DNA of 64,000 bases from assembly GCA_016199805.1 (NCBI GenBank), contig JACQGC010000018.1, forward strand, positions 5,219 to 69,218, in the 5' to 3' direction. The notes beneath the pieces are model-generated. The model did not search any database. It was not told where the DNA came from and worked only from the letters and a program-made list of their open reading frames with translations. The position numbers were made by a program, and so were the translations under genes. Shown in pieces: positions 17,229 through 40,569 of the stretch; the first letter of the stretch is position 1, and the number at the start of each line of letters is the position of its first letter. The DNA comes from Candidatus Nomurabacteria bacterium. GTDB lineage: Bacteria > Patescibacteriota > Minisyncoccia > Phycocordibacterales > UBA9973.

Positions 17229-17624
17229 ATGTACCCATATTGGGATATTCCTAAAAATAAACTTTTAGCAGAAAGAACTAGAGATTTAAGAAAAGCTGGT
17301 AATTTGGCTGAGGTTTTGTTTTGGAAAATATTTAATGACAAAAAGAAATTAGGTTTTGATATAGATAGACAAGTAATTATAGGTCAATACATAGTAGATT
17401 TTTTAATTCCCGAACTTGGCTTAGTTTTTGAAATAGACGGCTCCAGCCACGATTCAAAAATAGAATATGATGCGGAAAGGGATGCTTTTATGAAAGACTT
17501 AAATTTGCAGGTGATTAGAATATCTGACTTAGAGGTGAAAAACAACTTAAGTAGCATTTACCACTTAGTGTTAGAGACAGTTGAAAAAAGAAAACAGGAG
17601 GTATTGGAATTATTCCCCTCTTGA
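17229..17624 (+). CDS. DUF559 endonuclease-domain protein (Vsr-like fold)
   Basis: RQVIIGQYIVDFLIPELGLVFEIDGSSHDSKIEYDAERDAFMKDLNLQVIRIS matches the DUF559 pattern. The last codons and the TGA stop lie inside the downstream palindromic repeat. Confidence 0.75.
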   Translation: MYPYWDIPKNKLLAERTRDLRKAGNLAEVLFWKIFNDKKKLGFDIDRQVIIGQYIVDFLIPELGLVFEIDGSSHDSKIEYDAERDAFMKDLNLQVIRISDLEVKNNLSSIYHLVLETVEKRKQEVLELFPS

Positions 17625-17650
17625 GGGGTGGCGCTTGCGCCGGGGTGGAT
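17612..17650. repeat. GC-rich palindromic element attCCCCTCTTGAGGGGtGGCGCTTGCGCCggggtgga
   Basis: Two nested hairpins (CCCCTC-TT-GAGGGG and GGCGC-TT-GCGCC). A nearly identical copy is at 19906-19944. Confidence 0.6.
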
Positions 17651-17718
17651 ATATTTTACTTCTTGACAACCCGCTTCCAATAAAATATACTTAGTCTACC
17701 TAACTATTAGGTAGACAT

Positions 17719-19905: not shown

Positions 19906-19990
19906 ATTCCCCTCGTTGAGGGGTGGCGCTTGCGCCGGGGTGGAAATGCATCCACCTCCCCCTAAAGGGTACTCCTCAAGAGGAGAATAA
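19906..19990. repeat. cluster of GC-rich palindromic repeats between the adaptor and MFS genes
   Basis: attcccctcgttgaggggtggcgcttgcgccggggtgga (a copy of the 17612 element), then GGTGGAaatgcaTCCACC, then CTCCTCaaGAGGAG. Confidence 0.6.
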
Positions 19991-20003
19991 AACAACAAAG
20001 AGT

Positions 20004-21491
20004 ATGGAAGAAGAAAATAAGGGTTCAAATTTGCGTTGGTGGATACTTTTGACCGTTATCATCGGGACTTTTTTGGGGCGTCTGGACGAGACCATTGTAA
20101 ACTTAGCCCTCCCAAAAATCATAAACGATTTTGGCATTACTGTTTCCGCGGCGAGTTGGATAGCGACTGCGTATATCTTGGCCAATACCGCTTTTGTTCC
20201 GATATGGGGTAAACTCGGAGACACTATCGGCCGGAAAAAAGTCTATCTTTGGGGTTTTAGTATTTTTATTTTTGGCTCAATTTTGGCGGGGCTATCATGG
20301 AACCTTCCATCTATGATTACTTTTCGTATCATCCAGTCCATCGCTAGCAGTGCGGACTATCCGACGGCTATGGCCATCTTGGCTGTCACCTTCAGACATG
20401 GCAAGGAGCGCGCGCAGGCACTCGGCATCTGGTCTTCTTCTTTCGCCGCGGCGATAGTTTTCGGCCCATTATTGGGAGGGCCACTTATCGACAATTTCGG
20501 CTGGCGCTCTGTTTTTATGATTAATATCCCAATCGGAATTTTGGGAATGTTTATGGCCGTAAGTTTCATAAATGAATCTCGTTCCGAAGTAAAAACCAGA
20601 TTCTTTGACTGGTGGGGTGCCATCACTTTGGGCGGAATGCTTTCCGCTTTGGTTTTGGTTTTGGACCAAGCTTCCATCTGGGGCTGGATGTCATTAAATA
20701 GCTCATTGTGCTATTTGGCCATTTTGGTTCTGCTCGGAGTATTTCTACGGATTGAGCAAAAAGTTCCAGAACCGATTGTGGATTTGAAATTCTTCAAAAT
20801 CCCGGCTTTTGTCAACGTGCTGGTAAACAATTTTATAGTTTTCATGGGTATGATGGGCGGTGTCTTTTTGATACCTATTTTCGCCCAAACTTTTCTCGGG
20901 TTCAACGCGACCCAATCCGGCTACCTATTTATTCCCATGGCAGCATCGTTGATGCTTGCTGCCCCTATCGGCGGGAGACTGATTGGAAAAGTGCAATCTC
21001 GGTTTATAATTTTTGCCAGTACCCTGACCGCCGCTCTCGGCATTTTTCTCTTGACCGGACTTGATCCAAAATCAGGAGCTTTAGCCATCGCCATACCGCT
21101 TTCTATCATGGCCTTTGGTATGGGTTTCGGTATGGCTCAACGCACCAATATTGTGGCCTCTGTGGTGCCGCAAAGCGAGATAGGCATCGCTTCATCCATT
21201 TTAGCATTGGTCCGGAACATAGCCGGCGCATTTGGAATCGCTATTTTTGCCACTATTGTAACCGCTAGAACCAAAACAAATGTTTCAATCATCAACAGTT
21301 TTAGTAGACTAAACAGCCATATACCACTTAATATAAAAACATTCATAGGTTTGATTGAGTTAAAAGCCCAAGTGTCGGCTTATGATTATGTTTTTTTGAC
21401 CGCAGCGCTCATAGTTTTTTTCGGCTCCTTTACCATTTTGTTTCTAAAACTAAAAAGCGAACGCACTGATATCAAAGTGCACGTGGAGTAG
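20004..21491 (+). CDS. MFS drug:H+ antiporter, DHA2/EmrB-like (14-TM type)
   Basis: LTVIIGTFLGRLDETIVNLALPKI..., WGKLGDTIGRKK, about 14 TM segments. The internal ATG at 20004 avoids the upstream repeat cluster. Confidence 0.85.
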   Translation: MEEENKGSNLRWWILLTVIIGTFLGRLDETIVNLALPKIINDFGITVSAASWIATAYILANTAFVPIWGKLGDTIGRKKVYLWGFSIFIFGSILAGLSWNLPSMITFRIIQSIASSADYPTAMAILAVTFRHGKERAQALGIWSSSFAAAIVFGPLLGGPLIDNFGWRSVFMINIPIGILGMFMAVSFINESRSEVKTRFFDWWGAITLGGMLSALVLVLDQASIWGWMSLNSSLCYLAILVLLGVFLRIEQKVPEPIVDLKFFKIPAFVNVLVNNFIVFMGMMGGVFLIPIFAQTFLGFNATQSGYLFIPMAASLMLAAPIGGRLIGKVQSRFIIFASTLTAALGIFLLTGLDPKSGALAIAIPLSIMAFGMGFGMAQRTNIVASVVPQSEIGIASSILALVRNIAGAFGIAIFATIVTARTKTNVSIINSFSRLNSHIPLNIKTFIGLIELKAQVSAYDYVFLTAALIVFFGSFTILFLKLKSERTDIKVHVE

Positions 21492-22112
21492 TTAGTTTTT
21501 TCGCGTTCGCTTTTTATACAGCAAGACTTGGATAAGGTTTACGCCGACACCGAGGGCGAAAACTATCACCCCGGCCTTGAGGAAAAAAGACAGGTTGTTT
21601 TGCCATTCGTTGCCCAAATAGAAACCTGTCATGCCATACATGATGGTATAAGCTATCTCTCCGAACAAGGCAAAAGTAAAAAAAGTTTTGAAAGACACTT
21701 TGGAAATACCAGCCATGATGTTGGTAGCCGGGGAGAGTTCGGTTAGAAACCGGCTGAAAAATATCAGCGAGGGGGCAAAGTCCACGATATAATCTTCAAC
21801 TTCATGAAAAGATTTTGAATGCAAAATATGCCGGAAGAAAACAAATCTGCCCAATACTTTCTCCCCGTATTTTTTTGCCAAAATGTATCCGATTATGTTT
21901 CCGGTCATGCTGCCTAAAAGCGTTATCCCGAGCACCAGGTAAATATTAAAATAGCCCTGAGAAGCAAACCCTCCGGCGGCGGCCAGCACCGTGCTGGCGG
22001 GTATGGGCAGGGCTATGGACGAAAGCAGGGCGACTATAAACAATCCCACGTATTTATAAAGAAGCAAAAAAGAAATTAGGTATTGAAACAAAGGATATAA
22101 AAATGTGGTCAT
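21492..22112 (-). CDS. DedA/VTT-domain membrane protein
   Basis: 206 aa multi-TM with the DedA core (GLFIVALLSSIALPIPASTVLAAAGGFAS..., FSRFLTELSPATNIMAGISKVSF). Confidence 0.8.
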   Translation of the reverse strand: MTTFLYPLFQYLISFLLLYKYVGLFIVALLSSIALPIPASTVLAAAGGFASQGYFNIYLVLGITLLGSMTGNIIGYILAKKYGEKVLGRFVFFRHILHSKSFHEVEDYIVDFAPSLIFFSRFLTELSPATNIMAGISKVSFKTFFTFALFGEIAYTIMYGMTGFYLGNEWQNNLSFFLKAGVIVFALGVGVNLIQVLLYKKRTRKN

Positions 22113-22181
22113 GCTTTAGTGGTCATTGTACCAAATAGAGCCTTTATATTCCAGAGAAAATATGCTAAGTTTAAGTAATAT

Positions 22182-22252
22182 TACGGGATCTGCTAATGGT
22201 AGGCAAACGCTCTCTGAAAGCGTGAATCTTGGTTCGAATCCAAGTCCCGTAG
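22182..22252 (+). tRNA. tRNA-Gln (anticodon CUG)
   Basis: UACGGGA/UCCCGUA acceptor with U1:A72 and G73 as in bacterial tRNA-Gln, anticodon stem ACGCU/AGCGU with loop CUCUGAA, T-arm CUUGG-UUCGAAU-CCAAG. Confidence 0.8.
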
Positions 22253-22253
22253 C
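22236..22253 (+). repeat. 18-bp direct repeat gaatccaagtcccgtagc (left copy, the tRNA-Gln 3' end)
   Basis: Identical 18-mer at 22611-22628; together they bound the GIY-YIG insertion. Confidence 0.8.
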
Positions 22254-22288
22254 ACTTCGGCAAGCTCAGTGTAAACGAAAATATTTAC

Positions 22289-22570
22289 ATGGAAAAACAT
22301 TACGTATACATGCTTCTTTGCGACCAGAAAACTTTTTATATCGGTATTACTTTTGATATTCAGAAAAGGTTAGAAGAACACAAATCCAAGGAATCTTTTT
22401 TTACAAAAAAGTTTTCTGAAGTTAAACTTGTATATTGTGAGAAATATAAAAATAAAAACGAGGCTGCAAAAAGAGAACGACAATTAAAGGGTTGGAGTCG
22501 CAAAAAGAAGCAAATGTTGCTTAATGGAAAAATCGGAATAAACTGCATTGAGCTGGATGAAGTGCTGTAG
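22289..22570 (+). CDS. GIY-YIG nuclease-family protein (YhbQ/UPF0213-like)
   Basis: YVYMLLCDQKTFYIGITFDIQKRLEEH...R: the GIY-X10-YIG core with conserved Arg and Glu. Confidence 0.75.
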   Translation: MEKHYVYMLLCDQKTFYIGITFDIQKRLEEHKSKESFFTKKFSEVKLVYCEKYKNKNEAAKRERQLKGWSRKKKQMLLNGKIGINCIELDEVL

Positions 22571-22610
22571 TATAATTGAGATGAGACGTTTGCCTTGAGC
22601 TTGCCGAAAG

Positions 22611-22628
22611 GAATCCAAGTCCCGTAGC
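22611..22628 (+). repeat. 18-bp direct repeat gaatccaagtcccgtagc (right copy)
   Basis: Exact duplicate of 22236-22253. Confidence 0.8.
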
Positions 22629-22653
22629 CAGCAGCAAACTTAGCATATTTTTT

Positions 22654-23040
22654 GTGGAATTAGAAGCGTTGTGCTATTATGGGGGTATGGGAACAGGAAA
22701 TTTTGGTCACCCTCCCGAGGGTGCGTTTATAATAGACAAGAAAAAGGCGGAATTTAAGAAACTGCTGTCTTCCTTGACTTCTTTGCTGGAAAAACTTTCC
22801 TTTGGACAAAGGCAAAAATTCATTGCCGAAGTCTCCCGTTTGAGCGAACAGCTTTTACATACTGACCCGGAACTCTTATTGGAAGAGGTAAACATTTTAG
22901 CCCAGCTTTATGGGGGCTTGTCCACATCTCTGAAAGGGGAAGCAAACAGAGAGATTATCAGCGCCGCCACGTTTCAGCTCGGAGAGATTTCTGCCGCCGC
23001 GCAAGAACTGCAAAAAATAAAACCGGGTGCAAGAGCTTAA
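22654..23040 (+). CDS. hypothetical protein
   Basis: 128-aa ORF with a GTG start, ending just before a strong terminator; no recognisable domain. Confidence 0.45.
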   Translation: MELEALCYYGGMGTGNFGHPPEGAFIIDKKKAEFKKLLSSLTSLLEKLSFGQRQKFIAEVSRLSEQLLHTDPELLLEEVNILAQLYGGLSTSLKGEANREIISAATFQLGEISAAAQELQKIKPGARA

Positions 23041-23065
23041 TAATAAATAAAAATAAATTAGAATT

Positions 23066-23100
23066 GCCCCGCGTTCAGCTGAACGCGGGGCTGTTTCTTT
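23066..23100 (+). terminator. rho-independent terminator GCCCCGCGUUCAGCUGAACGCGGGGC plus U-tract
   Basis: Perfect 11-bp GC-rich stem followed by TGTTTCTTT. Confidence 0.6.
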
Positions 23101-23104
23101 CTCC

Positions 23105-23132
23105 TTGTCAAAAACCCCCAAAGATGTACTAT
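23105..23132 (+). promoter_or_regulatory. sigma70-like promoter (TTGTCA, 16 nt, TACTAT)
   Basis: -35 at 23105-23110 and -10 at 23127-23132. The predicted start (about 23139) coincides with the first base of the long stem of the downstream structured RNA. Confidence 0.4.
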
Positions 23133-23139
23133 TAAAGCA

Positions 23140-23309
23140 GTCCAGAGGAAGAACGCTTTGAGTTGACCTGGGGTGTGACAGCCCCGGCTGGCGACCCGGG
23201 CTGTCCTCCCGCACGGCCTCGCGCTTCTCCTCTGGACTGAGAATTGTTTTTGTCTTGTCCTATCGTTTTTTACCCGAGCTTCCTTCACTGGCGCTCGGGT
23301 TTGTTTTTT
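23140..23309 (+). ncRNA. candidate small structured RNA (about 170 nt, unclassified; long closing stem, asymmetric internal loop, apical hairpin)
   Basis: GUCCAGAGGAAGAACGC (23140-23156) pairs perfectly with GCGCUUCUCCUCUGGAC (23221-23237). Inner hairpin GACAGCCC/GGGCUGUC. About 62% GC in a 40% GC genome. Own promoter. Ends at terminator ACCCGAGC...GCUCGGGU plus U6 (23272-23309). No ORF. Confidence 0.4.
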
Positions 23310-23676
23310 ATATGGGCTATTGCCATTTCAATTTTTTTATATATACTAAAGTAAATGTAGTTTAGGTTCCTTTGTAAAGGAGTACCACGTGGTAAACATA
23401 CAAACCGTTTTCTGTCCTAACTGCCAACTTAGGACAAACGTTCAATTCCCCAATTGCGTACATTGCGGGAAGAGTCTTGTTGTTTCGACCAAACAAAGCC
23501 AACCCGTCGCCACCGCTGCCCGCCCGCGGCAATGGCCAACGGTAGCCGTTCACTAGGTTCTGCATTTCCGCCGAAAGGCATCGTAAAGGGCAGGCTCGCC
23601 AAGCTTGCCCTTTTTCATTGCTTGCAATGTGCTAAAAAGGAGTATAATTAAATTATTAATAACCTATTAAAAATAT

Positions 23677-23916
23677 ATGAATCAAAACAAAAATTGTGAG
23701 AGTTGTATGATGCCTTTGGCAAAGGACCCTATGGTTAGTGGGAGTGACAAGTATTGCAGTTATTGTTTCCAGGGTGGCCGGTTGGTTTACGAGGGGAATG
23801 ACGTGAATGAATTTAAAAAAGCCAGTTATGAGAAGATGGTAGCAAGCGGCATGAACAAACTGAAAGCCAAATTTTTCGTTTGGATGATTGGCTTCGCGCC
23901 CCGCTGGAAGAAGTAA
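23677..23916 (+). CDS. small zinc-ribbon protein
   Basis: CESC...16...CSYC arrangement in 79 aa. Confidence 0.5.
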   Translation: MNQNKNCESCMMPLAKDPMVSGSDKYCSYCFQGGRLVYEGNDVNEFKKASYEKMVASGMNKLKAKFFVWMIGFAPRWKK

Positions 23917-23938
23917 AATAAGTGGTATACTTAAACAT

Positions 23939-24484
23939 ATGAAAATAGAATCAGAATGGAAAAAAGTACCAAAACCTAGATTAGAAAAGACGTATCCAAA
24001 ATCTCCGGAAGATAGCAAAAAGCTATATGATATGAATGTTGCCTTGCTCAATTATTTGGAGCGTTATTCCGGTGATGCTGATATGCAGTTTATAAAAGAA
24101 GATTTTGAAAGATCCGAAGAATTTGGAGAAAAAATCTCTGTCTTAAAGGACGCATTGTCGGTTTTTGAAAAGGAAACAGTGGATCAAGTCAAGGCAAGTT
24201 GTCGGGCACAAATTGACGAACTCTCTGCCGCTTGGCTCAATAAAAAAAATGGAGAAGAGGTTGTGCGTCTGATAGATATCAGACTAGGTAATATTTCTGG
24301 GGATTTTGGAGTTGATATTAAAAAAGAGGCTGATAATTTCATAGCTATGTTGCGCAAAAAGCCCGAGCTTTGGGCTTTTTGTAATCTTTTGATTGTCGGG
24401 GCTCAAGTAAAAAAAGATTTAACATATTTTAGAAAAGTTACAGAAACAGCTATAGCAAGTAATTCTGGTAATACAGTTCAGTAA
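23939..24484 (+). CDS. hypothetical protein
   Basis: About 180-aa charged, helical ORF. The internal ATG at 23939 was chosen because the longer ORF overlaps the upstream gene. Confidence 0.45.
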
Positions 24485-24489
24485 AATTT

Positions 24490-24699
24490 ATGTATCTTGT
24501 TTACATTTTGGAATGCGCCGACAAGACTTTGTATGTGGGTTGCACAAACAACCTGGAGAAAAGATTAAATCAGCACAATAATCATAAATCCGGAGCCCAT
24601 TACACCAAAATCCGCCGCCCGGTGGTTTTGAAATATTTTGAGAAATATAGAACTCTAAAAAGGGGACGAGCTCGGGAACGGAAAGAAGTAAAAATTTAA
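24490..24699 (+). CDS. GIY-YIG nuclease-family protein (second copy, YhbQ-like)
   Basis: [30 protein letters not shown]...R. A palindromic hairpin follows at 24702-24724. Confidence 0.75.
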
Positions 24700-24803
24700 A
24701 TTTCGCGAGGACCGTCCTCGCGAAACTCGATTTATATTTGATTGATATCTTTTCCTTTTAGGTATAGAGTGAATTTGAAGCGGAGTTCCGATAAGGGGGA
24801 AAA

Positions 24804-25100
24804 ATGAATAGCCACAGGATCTTGTGCAAATGTGAGTGTGGTAATTACGTACAACCGTTCTCTTTGCGGGTTACAGACCAGAAGTCTTTGATGGTCATCG
24901 GAAAATGCATTGCTTGTGAGTCGCTGGTCAATGTGTTCTTCCCGCTAGATTACCTCGAGGAGTCTTGTCCGGCTCCGGCCCCGACTCTGTTAATTGAGGA
25001 AGGAAAGCCCATGCCGGGGAAACCCTTCCATTTCACGGTGGAAGATGTAAGGATGTTGCGCTCGGGGAAAATTGACCCAGAAGAGGAAGGAGAAGGATGA
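24804..25100 (+). CDS. Cys-rich hypothetical protein (putative zinc finger)
   Basis: CKCECG...CIACES; good Shine-Dalgarno (AAGGGGGAAAAATG); higher local GC. Confidence 0.5.
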   Translation: MNSHRILCKCECGNYVQPFSLRVTDQKSLMVIGKCIACESLVNVFFPLDYLEESCPAPAPTLLIEEGKPMPGKPFHFTVEDVRMLRSGKIDPEEEGEG

Positions 25101-25242
25101 GTCCTCGGGCTTTTCAAGAAGAAGGGTACTAGGGGAGGCGAGCTTCGGCTTACCTCCCCATTTAAATTATAAATTTGCAAAAAATACTACTGCTCTTGTA
25201 ATTTTCTATAAATATGTTACAGTGTTTTTGAAAGGAGCACAT

Positions 25243-25473
25243 ATGCAGAACCGAGTTATTATGGTTTCTTCGGTCAACTTGCCCGACGAAGCCGCACAGC
25301 AGATGAACGACGAAATCAAAAAGTTGGGAGAAGGCTGGAGCGTGGTTGATATCAGCACCAACGTCGAAGTATTTGGTGTTGTTGTGGACGGCATAAACAT
25401 ACCGCCCTTACACCACGCTGTATACGCCATAACCGTCGCGTTACAGAAGCCGGACTTTGAAGAGGTCGACTGA
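25243..25473 (+). CDS. hypothetical small protein
   Basis: 76-aa ORF with Shine-Dalgarno AAAGGAGCACATATG, followed by a terminator. Confidence 0.45.
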   Translation: MQNRVIMVSSVNLPDEAAQQMNDEIKKLGEGWSVVDISTNVEVFGVVVDGINIPPLHHAVYAITVALQKPDFEEVD

Positions 25474-25566
25474 CATATCGTGGCGGCGAGGACTAAAATC
25501 GGTTTCATCGGGTCGGGCGTCCGCAAGGACGTCCGGCCTTTCACTTTAAATTTAATACAAACTTTT

Positions 25567-25606
25567 ACTGGCGGTGCTCCTCGAGGGGGCGACCGCCAGT
25601 TTTTTT
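25567..25606 (+). terminator. rho-independent terminator ACUGGCGGU...ACCGCCAGU plus U7
   Basis: 9-bp stem, GC-rich loop, TTTTTTT. Confidence 0.6.
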
Positions 25607-25617
25607 GACCTTATGAC

Positions 25618-25764
25618 TTTAAAACGGAACCCATTCAGCCAGCTGGTCGTAGGCGACCCAGCCTCCCCAGAAAATTACCACAAGCATTAACAATGCTATC
25701 ACCGCCAACGTTTTCTTGCTCTTTGCCAAGACAACGTTTCCCAAACTCTCCAAGAAATAGGACA
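25618..25764 (-). CDS. small hydrophobic protein (48 aa), not in the ORF track
   Basis: Strong Shine-Dalgarno on the - strand (GGAGGCTCCATG); product MSYFLESLGNVVLAKSKKTLAVIALLMLVVIFWGGWVAYDQLAEWVPF has one TM. Confidence 0.35.
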
Positions 25765-25786
25765 TGGAGCCTCCAAATAATATACT

Positions 25787-26137
25787 ATGCTCAAAAAGAT
25801 TTTAGTCAAATTAAAAAATAGGGAGTATAATAATAGTATGAATTACATACAAAAATATAAGGAATATTTACAAGATAACCCGGAGGGTTATTGGTTCAAG
25901 AGGAAACTTTACGGCTGGGGATGGACGCCGGCCAAATGGGAAGGGTGGATGGTGATTTTTATATTTTTACTTTTGATTTTATTGGTTGCCTGGAGCCTGG
26001 GCTCAAATCCTATGCCGACAGATTGGGATATTGATTTATATTTTACAAAAATTATTTTGCTGGTGGCTCTGCTCATTCTAGTCTGCTACAAAAAAGGCGA
26101 GAAGCCAAAATGGCAGTGGGGCAAGAGAAAAGAGTAA
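25787..26137 (+). CDS. hypothetical membrane protein
   Basis: Trp-rich, one to two TM; alternative start at 25838. Confidence 0.5.
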   Translation: MLKKILVKLKNREYNNSMNYIQKYKEYLQDNPEGYWFKRKLYGWGWTPAKWEGWMVIFIFLLLILLVAWSLGSNPMPTDWDIDLYFTKIILLVALLILVCYKKGEKPKWQWGKRKE

Positions 26138-26150
26138 GAATAAGAAATAA

Positions 26151-26624
26151 ATGGAAAAAGATTACATTTTCAAAACCAATCCGCAAAAGTCGGCCAACAA
26201 GGTCACTATCAATAGTTTTATGATGGGTTCTTTGTTTTTCGTTTTGACTCTCATCATCACCCTCGGCTCAAGCGAATTTTCGCATGCCATAATCTTCCAG
26301 CTGTTCTTGGCAGTGCCCTTGCTTTATGTTTCCAGCTTGGCTTATTCCAAAATCGGCTACTGGAAAGAAACTTATGAGTGGGATGCTTTGGGGTGGTTTA
26401 CAAACACTCTTGGCAACCTGTTTGTCATCAACGCCATCGGCTTGCTCGCGCTAAAATTCAGCTTAGGTTTGTCTCAGATTTACTTTGCTTTGTTCTCTTT
26501 CCTGATGGTCATTTACACCCTTATTAATATCCGGCAAAACAAAAAAATATTTTACGAAAAAATGTTCAAGTTAATTTTTCTCTTGTTGGTCGTGTTCCTC
26601 GGGGGAATTTTGTTTATAATGTAA
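26151..26624 (+). CDS. hypothetical polytopic membrane protein
   Basis: 157 aa, four predicted TM segments. Confidence 0.5.
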   Translation: MEKDYIFKTNPQKSANKVTINSFMMGSLFFVLTLIITLGSSEFSHAIIFQLFLAVPLLYVSSLAYSKIGYWKETYEWDALGWFTNTLGNLFVINAIGLLALKFSLGLSQIYFALFSFLMVIYTLINIRQNKKIFYEKMFKLIFLLLVVFLGGILFIM

Positions 26625-26630
26625 ATATAA

Positions 26631-26684
26631 TTTCGGCCGAGCTTTAATGGACGATTGCGCGGCATGATTTCGCAAAATCAAATG
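26631..26684 (+). repeat. about 45-nt conserved leader element (copy A); second copy at 35801-35850
   Basis: gcTTTAATGGACGATTGCGCGGCATGATTTCGC(a/t)AAATCAAAT is shared. It forms hairpin GCCGNGC...GCGCGGC and contains an ATG opening a short uORF in copy B. Confidence 0.45.
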
Positions 26685-27019: not shown

Positions 27020-27313
27020 TTGGGGGTGCAAATGACAAAAGAAAGGGTACCAACGGTTAAGTTCTACCGGGCTACTGGGGCAGATGTTTTCGAGCCGGAA
27101 GACCAGCCCGGAAACTATTTTGTTCCGCGACGCTTGCAGCTTGGCGATGAAATGGCCGCTCTGCGTGTGAAGAAGGATGGGCGGGAGTGGGTTCCGTTTG
27201 AGTGCCTGCCAGACCACGGGGTCCGCCCACCCCTTCGGGCTGAATTGACTTTTTTCCTCCGGCACGAGCCCGGACGGATTGTCGGAAAGATTGCCAGACG
27301 GAGCTTGGCGTGA
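27020..27313 (+). CDS. hypothetical protein encoded in a GC-rich island
   Basis: 97-aa ORF in an about 58% GC segment; no recognisable domain. Confidence 0.4.
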   Translation: MGVQMTKERVPTVKFYRATGADVFEPEDQPGNYFVPRRLQLGDEMAALRVKKDGREWVPFECLPDHGVRPPLRAELTFFLRHEPGRIVGKIARRSLA

Positions 27314-27466
27314 CCCAAGCTTGGCGGGTGGCCGATTCCACCCACAAAAAACACAAGTCGTTAAGATTTCCTATGGAAAAACACTGGCGGCTTTTTATAT
27401 TTTTTCATAATGTATTCATAATTTAATTATATTGTTCTCGTGGACGTTCTACAAAAGGAGAGAAAA

Positions 27467-27970
27467 ATGTCCACACTGATGTTGGAGTTTATGGTTCGGG
27501 AATCGCGCGGGATTATAGATCTTTTCGGGTTTTTCCCGGGGAAAAGAGTAAAGATTGACAAGGCCTTCCATGAGCTGGCTTTGGGCGAGAATGGTGACCC
27601 CGACTATTCTTGTGGCGAATTGAAATGTCGTTTGTTCGAGGGCAGTACCGATGATATTCAAATGGCTGCGCTGTTCGGCGCCCCAAAGGTGGCGAACTCC
27701 AGCCGTTTGTGTTCAATTCTCAGGTACCTCGGCAACGAAGGGGAGTCGTTGTTGGATATACCGGCGGGGGCAGACAGGAAAGTTGTTATCGTGGGGTATC
27801 TCTACAACCGCGATTGGCAACCCAGCCGGGTGATTTTCGTGGAGCATGAGTTTCAGCAACGCGTAGAGCAATTTTGCCTGCGTGTCCGGACGCTCTCAAA
27901 GGGTGAGTGGCAGCTAAACAAAAACAAATGGAGGGCCGAGAATCCTCCGGCAGTACTGGTCGCCGAGTAG
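27467..27970 (+). CDS. hypothetical protein (GC-rich cassette)
   Basis: Strong Shine-Dalgarno AAAAGGAGAGAAAAATG; 167 aa. Flanked by imperfect direct repeats (cataatgtattcataat / cacaatgtattcataat) and followed by a strong terminator. Confidence 0.5.
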   Translation: MSTLMLEFMVRESRGIIDLFGFFPGKRVKIDKAFHELALGENGDPDYSCGELKCRLFEGSTDDIQMAALFGAPKVANSSRLCSILRYLGNEGESLLDIPAGADRKVVIVGYLYNRDWQPSRVIFVEHEFQQRVEQFCLRVRTLSKGEWQLNKNKWRAENPPAVLVAE

Positions 27971-27979
27971 AAATCTTTA

Positions 27980-28017
27980 CAGTCCCGCCGGTCACTACCG
28001 GCGGGACTGGTTTGTTC
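27980..28017 (+). terminator. rho-independent terminator CAGUCCCGCCGGU-CACU-ACCGGCGGGACUG plus UUUGUU
   Basis: Perfect 13-bp stem. Confidence 0.6.
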
Positions 28018-28111
28018 ACAATGTATTCATAATCTAACGATATTATTTCAAAGTCGGAAATTATAAATTTTAATTCGCAACCCAGTAGGTGATTCTACTG
28101 AATCAAATAAT

Positions 28112-28537
28112 ATGAATAAAAGCAATCCAGTAGTACATTTTGAAGTGCCGGGAGAAAATATGGACCGGATGAAAAAGTTTTATGAAACCGCTTTTGGCTG
28201 GAAGTTGAACCAACTCGGCAAAGACATGGGAGATTACGTGGTCGTAATGACGGCGGAGTCGAACGAAAAAGACCCCATGGGTCGCCCGAAAATGCCGGGC
28301 GCCATCAATGGTGGATTTTACAAAAAGACAGACGACCCCATGAGTCAGTATCCGTCCATCGTGGTGGCGGTGGATGACATAAACGAAGCGACGAAAAAAG
28401 TTAAGGATGCGGGCGGGAAAGTAATCGGCGGAATGAAAAAAGACGGCACGCCGGACGAGATTCCCGGGGTTGGCCTCTTCTCATCAATTATTGACACTGA
28501 AGGCAACAGAATAAGTATTCTTCAGCCAAAGAAATAA
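28112..28537 (+). CDS. VOC-family (glyoxalase/bleomycin-resistance fold) protein
   Basis: VVHFEVPGENMDRMKKFYETAFGWK..., about 140 aa single VOC module. Confidence 0.7.
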   Translation: MNKSNPVVHFEVPGENMDRMKKFYETAFGWKLNQLGKDMGDYVVVMTAESNEKDPMGRPKMPGAINGGFYKKTDDPMSQYPSIVVAVDDINEATKKVKDAGGKVIGGMKKDGTPDEIPGVGLFSSIIDTEGNRISILQPKK

Positions 28538-35800: not shown

Positions 35801-35850
35801 AAGCCGCGCTTTAATGGACGATTGCGCGGCATGATTTCGCTAAATCAAAT
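35801..35850 (+). repeat. about 45-nt conserved leader element (copy B)
   Basis: See 26631-26684. Hairpin GCCGCGC-N14-GCGCGGC followed by ATGATTTCGCTAAATCAAAT (a uORF MISLNQIL*). Confidence 0.45.
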
Positions 35851-40096: not shown

Positions 40097-40516
40097 ATGC
40101 CCCATTTCAGCCATGGCGTAAATGGGGCAGTGTGGTATCATATATACATGAGCCCAAGATATAAAGGTATGCGAGTAAATGCTTTCGGTTTGCCAGCATT
40201 TAAAAATGGCAGGAAAAGCCGTGCAAAAACTGAAAACAGGAAAAAATCTTTTTATCATGTCACTTTTCTTTCACCTTTTAAAAAAGATTCTTCAAAGAAT
40301 TTGATTGTAATGTACGACATTCCACATTTACAGAAAAAGGAGCGGGATTGGTTTCGTCGGCAATTAATAAAATTTGATTATATAATGATTCAAAAAAGTG
40401 TTTGGGTTGGACCGTCTCCACTACCCAAAAATTTCTTAGACTACTTAAAAGAAATAAAAATAGGGGATAAGTTTAAAACCTTTACATTGGCAAAATCTTA
40501 TACAGAAAAACTTTAA
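40097..40516 (+). CDS. hypothetical small protein with a Cas2/VapD-like C-terminal half
   Basis: NLIVMYDIPHLQKKERDWFRRQLIKFDYIMIQKSVW...GDKFKTFTLA resembles the Cas2 pattern (hydrophobic strand-YD, ...R..R..L...G..IQ.SVF, ...D.V.I..L). The ORF start lies inside a palindrome, so the true start may be internal. Confidence 0.4.
   Translation: MPHFSHGVNGAVWYHIYMSPRYKGMRVNAFGLPAFKNGRKSRAKTENRKKSFYHVTFLSPFKKDSSKNLIVMYDIPHLQKKERDWFRRQLIKFDYIMIQKSVWVGPSPLPKNFLDYLKEIKIGDKFKTFTLAKSYTEKL
40098..40129. repeat. 32-bp palindrome TGCCCCATTTCAGCCATGGCGTAAATGGGGCA (near-perfect; upstream copy)
   Basis: Centred on CCATGG; differs from the downstream copy by a CA/AC swap. Confidence 0.75.
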
Positions 40517-40537
40517 TTTACTACATTACTTACCGAC

Positions 40538-40569
40538 TGCCCCATTTACGCCATGGCGTAAATGGGGCA
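40538..40569. repeat. 32-bp perfect palindrome TGCCCCATTTACGCCATGGCGTAAATGGGGCA (downstream copy)
   Basis: Its reverse complement equals itself. Second copy 440 bp upstream; together they bracket the Cas2-like ORF. Confidence 0.8.

Follow-up and report, generated by a model that had tools for sequence, protein, structure and literature searches.

A predicted hairpin RNA gene and an adjoining unannotated zinc-ribbon gene in a Candidatus Nomurabacteria contig

What is encoded by a GC-rich, hairpin-dense stretch of DNA in a bacterium of the Candidate Phyla Radiation (CPR, or Patescibacteria)? CPR genomes are tiny and their non-coding DNA is expected to be functional, and we know of almost nothing on their regulatory RNAs or small proteins. 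The stretch in question (positions 23041-23676, below the flagged interval) lies in a 64 kb segment of a Candidatus Nomurabacteria contig that we refer to as the window (GC content 42.7%); a Logan contig (L001) is 100% identical to the window over 4.4 kb and adds no further variation. An initial annotation, made from the sequence alone, described the interval as poor in open reading frames (ORFs) and as a candidate source of small RNA resembling 6S RNA. Our reading, drawn from sequence comparison, is that it holds an unclassified hairpin RNA gene of about 170 nt and an adjoining, unannotated zinc-ribbon gene of 55 residues, rather than one ORF-poor RNA region, and that the two genes probably work as a pair.

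Both predicted genes lie on the + strand of a compact cassette of about 520 bp (23100-23620), in which a promoter-like site (P1), a rod-like hairpin, a U-rich linker and a terminator (T1) are followed by a second promoter-like site (P2), a ribosome-binding site (RBS), the zinc-ribbon ORF, a mini-hairpin and a last terminator (T2; Table 1). The first unit looks like a genuine structured small RNA (sRNA) gene, of a new family. Transcription would start at A23139/G23140, 6-7 nt after the sigma70-like -10 element, the 5' 100 nt would fold into the rod, and the linker together with T1 would end the RNA at about 170 nt. A promoter-to-terminator unit of this size had been proposed at the outset and holds up well, as a second copy of the cassette, described below, keeps the promoter geometry, the position of T1 and the helices, the latter with compensatory changes, and no ORF across the hairpin is conserved. 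The sigma70-like site and all three + strand terminators that had been listed (T0, T1 and T2) are also present.

The hairpin alone has a minimum free energy of -57.9 kcal/mol, and hairpin and terminator together (23138-23310) reach -74.7 kcal/mol (z -5.3), a value equalled by 0 of 200 dinucleotide shuffles. In a GC-adjusted stability scan of the 64 kb (6390 windows of 105 nt) the hairpin ranks eleventh, with the scan window truncating it; extrapolation from the same fit gives z of about -4.8 for the full hairpin. The closing stem 23140-23156 / 23221-23237, described initially as a perfect 17 bp, is indeed part of a long hairpin, but only 10-12 of its pairs are clean; beyond them lie a G.U pair and two A.C positions that are mismatched or bulged. 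Similarly, the local GC content of about 60% against about 40% is true of the hairpin (66%) but not of the flagged interval as a whole (45.6%); the value for 23440-23620 is 56%.

This RNA matches no family in Rfam 15. A search of the whole window at gathering score places no family on the hairpin, and at E<=10 the region and the hairpin alone, from the window as well as from the second copy, give only terminator look-alikes and unrelated noise, with no family common to both copies. All the best sub-threshold matches come from terminator T0, which lies within the flagged interval and has no homology to the second copy. A scan for tRNA and tmRNA genes gave no match in the flagged interval, and searches of the window for further copies of the hairpin element (with up to 3 mismatches, with a repeat finder and with nhmmer) found none, so that the element is single-copy there.

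Comparative evidence comes from the second copy of the cassette, found on a 5-kb JGI metagenome contig (L003) and on a 1-kb ENA contig (L004) that differs from L003 by 1 mismatch. Positions 3768-4335 of L003 align with 23100-23620 of the window over the entire cassette, with the same order and spacing of parts. Its counterpart of P1 (TTGCTT-16-TAAAAC) stands at the same 6-nt distance from A-GUCCAGAG as in the window, the T1 stem ACCCGAGC/CUCGGGU is conserved, and the hairpin forms the same rod (z -5.2). A structure-guided, hand-fitted pairwise alignment of the two copies defines 38 consensus pairs in four helical segments, in which 93.3% of cells are paired; 22 pairs are invariant, 5 carry double-compensatory changes and 5 differ by a one-sided change to or from G.U. 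Sliding the 3' partners by 1-3 columns leaves 39-53% of cells paired, with 0-3 double changes. The basal helix GUCCAGAG/CUCUGGAC and the UUGACCU segment facing GGC(C/A)UCGC are invariant in both copies, and the apical 11-13 nt cannot be aligned. Thus the basal helix and internal loop would be fixed, while the other helices would tolerate compensatory change.

The remainder of the interval, 23310-23615, had been taken for more RNA. We find here instead an ORF (23389-23556) that had been missed, with a strong RBS, its own promoter-like site and terminator, and a conserved homolog, which runs counter to the description of the interval as ORF-poor. None of the sources of existing gene calls that we checked records it. 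Its 55-amino acid product, (M)VNIQTVFCPNCQLRTNVQFPNCVHCGKSLVVSTKQSQPVATAARPRQWPTVAVH, includes the stretch MVNIQTVFCPNCQLR... and a conserved zinc-ribbon motif, CPNC-x10-CVHC (CxxC-x10-CxxC). The homolog, P0009 (57 amino acids; MVNIQTVVCLNCFTKTNKSFPICGSCGK...), is encoded on L003, is 44-50% identical depending on the alignment and keeps all four Cys; its RBS (AAGGAG) is 11 nt before the ATG. Between the two genes, codons 2-7 (VNIQTV) show five third-position synonymous differences, two of the four Cys are kept through TGC/TGT changes, and codons 1-32 carry 9 synonymous-only and 14 nonsynonymous differences. This synonymous pattern, together with the retention of the four Cys, is the signature of a translated gene, and we therefore read the ORF, on this comparative evidence, as a real protein-coding gene under purifying selection.

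The family signals in the protein are those of a zinc ribbon in general. Pfam matches are all below cut-off, the best at 19.7 against a cut-off of 27 (Zn_ribbon_3 / DZR clan), and searches of PHROGs, PADLOC and NCBIfam gave no family with a meaningful score. An AlphaFold2 (AF2) model has an N-terminal beta zinc ribbon (predicted local distance difference test score, pLDDT, of about 70) and a disordered tail, with a low overall pLDDT of 61. A search of the PDB with the protein profile returned eL37 zinc-ribbon matches only; these are sub-threshold (E 0.007-0.09) and were not used as evidence. By comparison, the two ORFs annotated earlier, 23058-23288 on the - strand and 23454-23651 on the + strand, do look as spurious as had been supposed: they have no Pfam match and no equivalent of at least 45 amino acids in the homologous locus, and the first is also not on record in the gene collection.

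The short palindromes on which the proposal of further RNA had drawn (at 23369, 23384 and 23414/23429) exist, but they are parts of the protein gene. One, CCTTTGTAAAGG, overlaps the RBS and another, ACCACGTGGT, spans the GTG start, and neither is conserved in L003. The third, GTCCTAA..TTAGGAC, occupies codons 9-16 of the ORF and reads GTCTTA..TAAGAC in the homolog. As mRNA this would be a hairpin (GUCCUAA..UUAGGAC, 23414-23435) that becomes GUCUUA..UAAGAC in L003 through two nonsynonymous changes (P10L and R15K), and it may be due either to chance or to a constraint on structure inside the coding sequence.

Table 1. Features of the cassette and of the preceding terminator in the window
Feature	Position	Strand	Sequence and remarks
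Terminator T0	23066-23091	+	11-bp stem (9 GC), T-tail; ends 117-amino acid gene 22687-23040; inside flagged interval, outside conserved cassette
Promoter-like site P1	23105-23132	+	TTGTCA-16-TACTAT; sigma70-like, 9/12; ends 6 nt before A23139/G23140; putative
Rod-like hairpin	23138-23239	+	about 100 nt; 5' part of predicted sRNA
Helix P1 of hairpin	23140-23149/23228-23237	+	basal helix GUCCAGAG.../...CUCUGGAC
Helix P2 of hairpin	23150-23156/23221-23227	+	
Helix P3 of hairpin	23163-23169/23215-23220	+	invariant UUGACCU facing GGCCUC
Helix P4 of hairpin	23169-23184/23198-23211	+	
Apical part of hairpin	23185-23197	+	loop CUGGCGA in window, UACAUCUCC in L003
U-rich single-stranded linker	23240-23271	+	GAGA..UGUU.UU conserved in part
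Intrinsic terminator T1	stem 23272-23300, U-tract to 23309	+	ACCCGAGC...GCUCGGGU + UUUGUUUUUU; z -4.6; predicted sRNA 3' end
Promoter-like site P2	23320-23347	+	TTGCCA-16-TATACT; 10/12, best match of region; putative, for small protein gene
Shine-Dalgarno sequence	23376-23382	+	AAAGGAG; 6 nt before GTG start
Zinc-ribbon ORF	23389-23556	+	GTG start; 55 amino acids; unannotated; (M)VNIQTVFCPNCQLRTNVQFPNCVHCGKSL..., tail poorly conserved
Mini-hairpin (GNRA)	23570-23579	+	GCC-GAAA-GGC; 3' untranslated region; conserved as GCCGAAAGGC in L003
Intrinsic terminator T2	23588-23615	+	GGGCAGGC...GCUUGCCC + UUUUU; right end of conserved cassette; conserved in L003

Several observations weigh against this interpretation of the locus. 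AT-rich DNA such as this yields many promoter-like matches, and as 12 were found in the region where 4.9 are expected, a promoter match alone is weak evidence. Five pairs of the alignment form in one of the two copies only, and 14 of 500 shuffles reach the observed covariation values. L004 being nearly the same sequence as L003, there are two independent sequences only, and as their covariation rests on a hand-fitted pair it is supportive rather than conclusive. Moreover, with an overall identity of about 71% between the two copies, limited divergence may account for some of the conservation. For the protein, the only family signals are the generic sub-cut-off zinc-ribbon matches. Lastly, the window hairpin folds slightly better on the - strand (-63.2 against -57.9 kcal/mol).

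The limited divergence between just two lineages would also suit a locus of no dedicated function. The inverted repeat would then be neutral or in decay, for example the remnant of a repeat element or of an old cluster of terminators, and would persist in two fairly close relatives because they parted too recently to have lost it; the genome does have other strongly folding intergenic segments (131-255, 741-845 and 25511-25615). We consider this improbable. Under this explanation one would have to account for the 5 double-compensatory and 5 wobble-compatible changes that keep 93% of the pairs while the unpaired linker and loop have diverged freely, with indels; for the retention of promoter spacing and terminator; and for helix P4, whose sequences are quite different in the two copies, yet both copies have z of about -5. 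As to the other folding segments themselves, 131-255 and 741-845 fold far above GC expectation (residual z -5.3 and -5.0) and match no Rfam family at gathering score; the first of them has a GC content of 60% and a multi-branched fold. At 25511-25600, 3' of an ORF that ends at 25473, two successive GC-rich terminator-like hairpins (GGGTCGGGCGTCC..GGACGTCCGGCC and ACTGGCGGT..GACCGCCAG) are followed by a T-run.

The stability of the - strand fold raises the question of whether the inverted repeat acts at the level of DNA, as a cruciform or single-stranded hairpin used for recombination or attachment, as an origin or as the end of a mobile element. This would explain how the cassette, which is not syntenic between its two hosts, comes to lie in different neighbourhoods. 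In its favour, too, a second conserved block, element X (see below), is differently placed relative to the cassette in the two genomes. However, the L003 hairpin contains five G.U pairs, which in hairpins extruded from duplex DNA, or on the complementary strand, would turn into A.C mismatches, and its + strand fold is better than its - strand fold by 10.6 kcal/mol. Since the T-tails of all three terminators are likewise on the + strand, RNA from the + strand is favoured. Neither recombinase, transposase, reverse transcriptase nor integrase was found among the ten ORFs scanned in 19923-26624 (Pfam) or a similar set (PHROGs), the borders of homology showed neither terminal nor target-site repeats, and the single-copy state of the element in 64 kb also speaks against a DNA-level role. 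The stem base GUCCAGAG/CUCUGGAC lacks the core sites (RYYYAAC / GTTRRRY) of an integron attC site, and the ORFs scanned, with no reverse transcriptase or integrase among them, gave no sign of a retron or integron. Like the preceding alternative, a DNA-level element is less likely than an RNA gene, and we regard it as very improbable.

The main rival to a stand-alone sRNA is a cis-acting leader, in which the hairpin and T1 would form the 5' leader of the zinc-ribbon gene and the transcript from P1 would stop at, or read through, T1. It could be a protein-dependent attenuator, possibly autoregulated by binding of the zinc ribbon to the hairpin, or a processive antitermination element of the put or EAR kind. 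The succession of promoter, structured RNA, terminator and ORF on one strand is a classic leader layout, hairpin and ORF always occur together, and T1 is only about 80 nt from the start codon. Nevertheless, the spacer between T1 and the ORF holds both the best promoter-like match of the region (P2, 10/12) and the best-conserved non-coding block (TATATACTnAAnTAAATGTAGTT, identical in L003 at 21/23 positions), which argues for a separate transcript of the ORF. In the window, pairing would be possible between the segment ACCCGGGC of helix P4 and the 3' arm of T1, but L003 has lost this potential, and there is neither a conserved antiterminator nor any conserved terminator/antiterminator pairing; the linker of 32-40 nt between hairpin and T1 is poorly conserved; and Rfam gives no riboswitch, leader or other cis-regulatory match common to both copies. 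Given that the P2 block is conserved and that no alternative pairing is, a leader seems to us rather unlikely, and we return to a separate sRNA and protein gene, the latter presumably transcribed from P2, with a GTG start, and ending at T2.

How do the two predicted genes relate to each other? Homology between the window and L003 ends at P1 on one side and at T2 on the other, and the flanking genes are unrelated: in the window a Zn_ribbon_2 gene and a 117-amino acid hypothetical ORF (22687-23040), whose product shares 100% identity with NCBI protein HY311_03750, and a 123-amino acid hypothetical gene and OmdA, on the opposite strand, in L003, whose lineage is unrelated to the window's host. 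The 117-amino acid protein has one homolog (61% identical, on L002), and no cassette is next to its gene; for the L003 upstream protein no homologs were found. Taken together, these observations define a cassette of about 520 bp that occurs in different contexts. Because the only other copy found has both genes, with order and spacing unchanged although the neighbourhood is another, the two genes would have been inherited or moved together.

A wider search adds no further member. An exhaustive HMMER search of 1.84 billion representative proteins found P0009 as the only true small homolog of the 55-amino acid protein; a second candidate (P0014) was rejected as a generic zinc ribbon on a high-GC contig with no hairpin. 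A profile search of 5.8 billion proteins again gave P0009 only, cluster look-up returned the proteins as singletons, and back-translated scans of genomes and viral contigs for the protein gave no match. For the RNA, a pattern made of the stem and UUGACCU is found 0 times in metagenomes (241 million records) and 0 times in 185,579 species-representative genomes, and the pattern of the block in the 5' untranslated region of the ORF 0 times in viral contigs. Looser patterns gave chance matches: five in metagenomes for the stem with GAG, none with a rod or terminator; 18 in viral contigs for the closing stem, of which 15 are one redundant, near-identical family that reads as phage coding DNA; and two unrelated terminators in viral contigs for T1. 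Blastn against GenBank phages and PLSDB plasmids gave no match. The family currently has two independent members in the collections searched.

A partnership between RNA and protein is suggested by three features: the genes are coupled, the stem base and internal loop do not vary and look like a recognition module, and a terminator separates the two co-oriented genes. That the cassette is a stand-alone sRNA family with a small zinc-ribbon protein, genetically coupled and acting as partners, is in our estimate a little better than an even bet. The link could be physical, the protein binding the hairpin at its invariant base and its internal loop as a small ribonucleoprotein (RNP), or regulatory, the RNA restraining the activity or expression of the protein in a manner formally like that of a pair of RNA antitoxin and protein toxin, in which case T1 would set the ratio of RNA to mRNA. 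Two complementarities between sRNA and mRNA, UUGUCCUA/UAGGACAA in the window and a CUACAU loop with an AUGUAG in the untranslated region in L003, were dismissed as chance because each occurs in one copy only. A bolder proposal, which we hold to be unlikely, is that of a new mobile two-component module of the CPR, with the hairpin RNA neutralising, guiding or scaffolding the 55-amino acid zinc ribbon. It might, for example, be a new type of RNA antitoxin and protein toxin, or a tiny RNP whose recognition stem is sequence-specific. Such a unit, selfish or defensive, would travel between the reduced genomes of episymbionts.

The surroundings of the cassette hold several other elements. To its left are genes for an MFS transporter, a DedA/VTT protein, tRNA-Gln and a small GIY-YIG protein and the 117-amino acid hypothetical gene; to its right the Zn_ribbon_2 gene (at 23677) is followed by a series of small hypothetical genes. 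A 25-nt inverted repeat (22148-22172 / 22636-22660, 92% complementary) brackets the tRNA-Gln gene (22182-22253) and the 93-amino acid GIY-YIG ORF (22289-22570), and a second small GIY-YIG ORF is at 24490-24699. An AT-rich near-palindrome with the core ATAATTTAATTAT occurs at 23643-23673, 27400-27436 and 28011-28047, one copy inverted. Each copy is upstream of a gene (Zn_ribbon_2, one that starts at 27468 and one at 28112), and the near-palindrome may be an operator or promoter element that these genes share.

Element X is a second conserved non-coding block, at 27294-27402 in the window and 3650-3756 in L003, with an 81-nt blastn core that is 81% identical. Its hairpin A, which reads AGCTTGG..CCAAGCT in the window and GTCTTG..CAAGAC in L003, has apparent compensatory changes, and the remainder comprises hairpin B (GGGTGGCCG(A/C)TTCCACCC), AAGTCGTTAAGATTT and CACTGGCG(G/A)CTTTTTATATTT. 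In L003 it is directly upstream of the cassette, whereas in the window it is 3.7 kb downstream, after the ORF 27034-27313, and this different placement points to a shuffling of intergenic modules from one such genome to another. A circular permutation or integration linking element X and the cassette was considered and rejected, as the genes between them are not homologous and no shared core repeat was seen. Elsewhere in the window there is a cobalamin riboswitch (RF00174, 57223-57362 on the - strand, 36.6 bits), above gathering score in a CPR genome, as well as pairs of similar short repeats (26636-26683 / 35803-35850, 48 nt at 96%; 17621-17652 / 19916-19947, 32 nt at 97%) and an inverted pair (40098-40131 / 40536-40569, 34 nt, 94%), all of which may be shared regulatory or terminator sequences.

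The locus thus offers a concrete pair, an RNA of defined predicted structure, whose invariant base is recognition-like, and a zinc ribbon of 55 amino acids missed by the recorded gene calls, and it illustrates that genuine small genes beginning with GTG can be concealed in GC-rich islands described as ORF-poor. If the two do form an RNP or a system akin to toxin-antitoxin pairs, this would be a new minimal RNA-protein system; otherwise, it would be an orphan sRNA family with two known members.

In comparison with known systems, the likeness to 6S RNA that was first suggested is confined to size (about 170-190 nt), rod-like shape and, as predicted here, independent transcription. 6S RNA has a large central bubble where the consensus internal loops here are at most about 3-7 nt, its 5' and 3' ends pair where here the 3' 70 nt or so (linker and T1) lie outside the rod, and it is a housekeeping RNA, in contrast to the patchy, cassette-like distribution seen here; nor is there a match to RF00013 at E<=10 for the region or the hairpin of either homolog, so that we do not retain the 6S-like label. 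CPR genomes often carry divergent housekeeping RNAs, and a 6S RNA or other such RNA, for instance the 4.5S RNA of the signal recognition particle (SRP), that Rfam models fail to recognise would agree with the predicted length and the rod. However, there is no match to RF00013 or RF00169 in either copy even with lax short-query filters, the rod is confined to the 5' 100 nt and lacks the GNRA-capped domain IV of SRP RNA, and the element is missing beside the closest homolog of the flanking gene. Its absence from the genome and metagenome pattern scans is likewise not as expected of a housekeeping RNA, and this explanation, the last of the three less likely ones, is extremely improbable.

The put RNAs of phage HK022 and the EAR element of Bacillus share with the cassette a promoter-proximal structured RNA followed by a terminator and then by genes. 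Here, however, there is no model match, a single rod in place of the two put stem-loops and an apparent separate promoter for the downstream gene. Type III toxin-antitoxin systems (ToxIN, CptIN and TenpIN) likewise have promoter, structured RNA, intrinsic terminator and protein gene on one strand, as here with T1 (23272-23309) between the two genes, in a compact, self-contained and non-syntenic module. They differ in having tandem repeats of 34-36 nt, as against a single hairpin of 100 nt, and in this region TRF found only an AT-rich 10-mer repeat at 23038-23058 and the repeat finder no direct-repeat family covering the RNA. Their toxin is an endoribonuclease of the ToxN/AbiQ type of about 170 amino acids, as against a 55-amino acid zinc ribbon with no PADLOC match, and the cassette has another promoter-like site ahead of its protein gene. 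The pairs ssrA-smpB and rsr-Y RNA involve RNAs to which ours has no sequence or model similarity, and proteins (SmpB and Ro) to which the zinc ribbon is unrelated, and binding in our case is hypothetical. They nevertheless share with the cassette a structured RNA gene that adjoins a gene for a small protein, which could be a binder of that RNA, and the invariant stem base and internal loop of our hairpin resemble a protein-recognition module of the kind seen in the conserved bulged stem of Y RNA that Ro binds.

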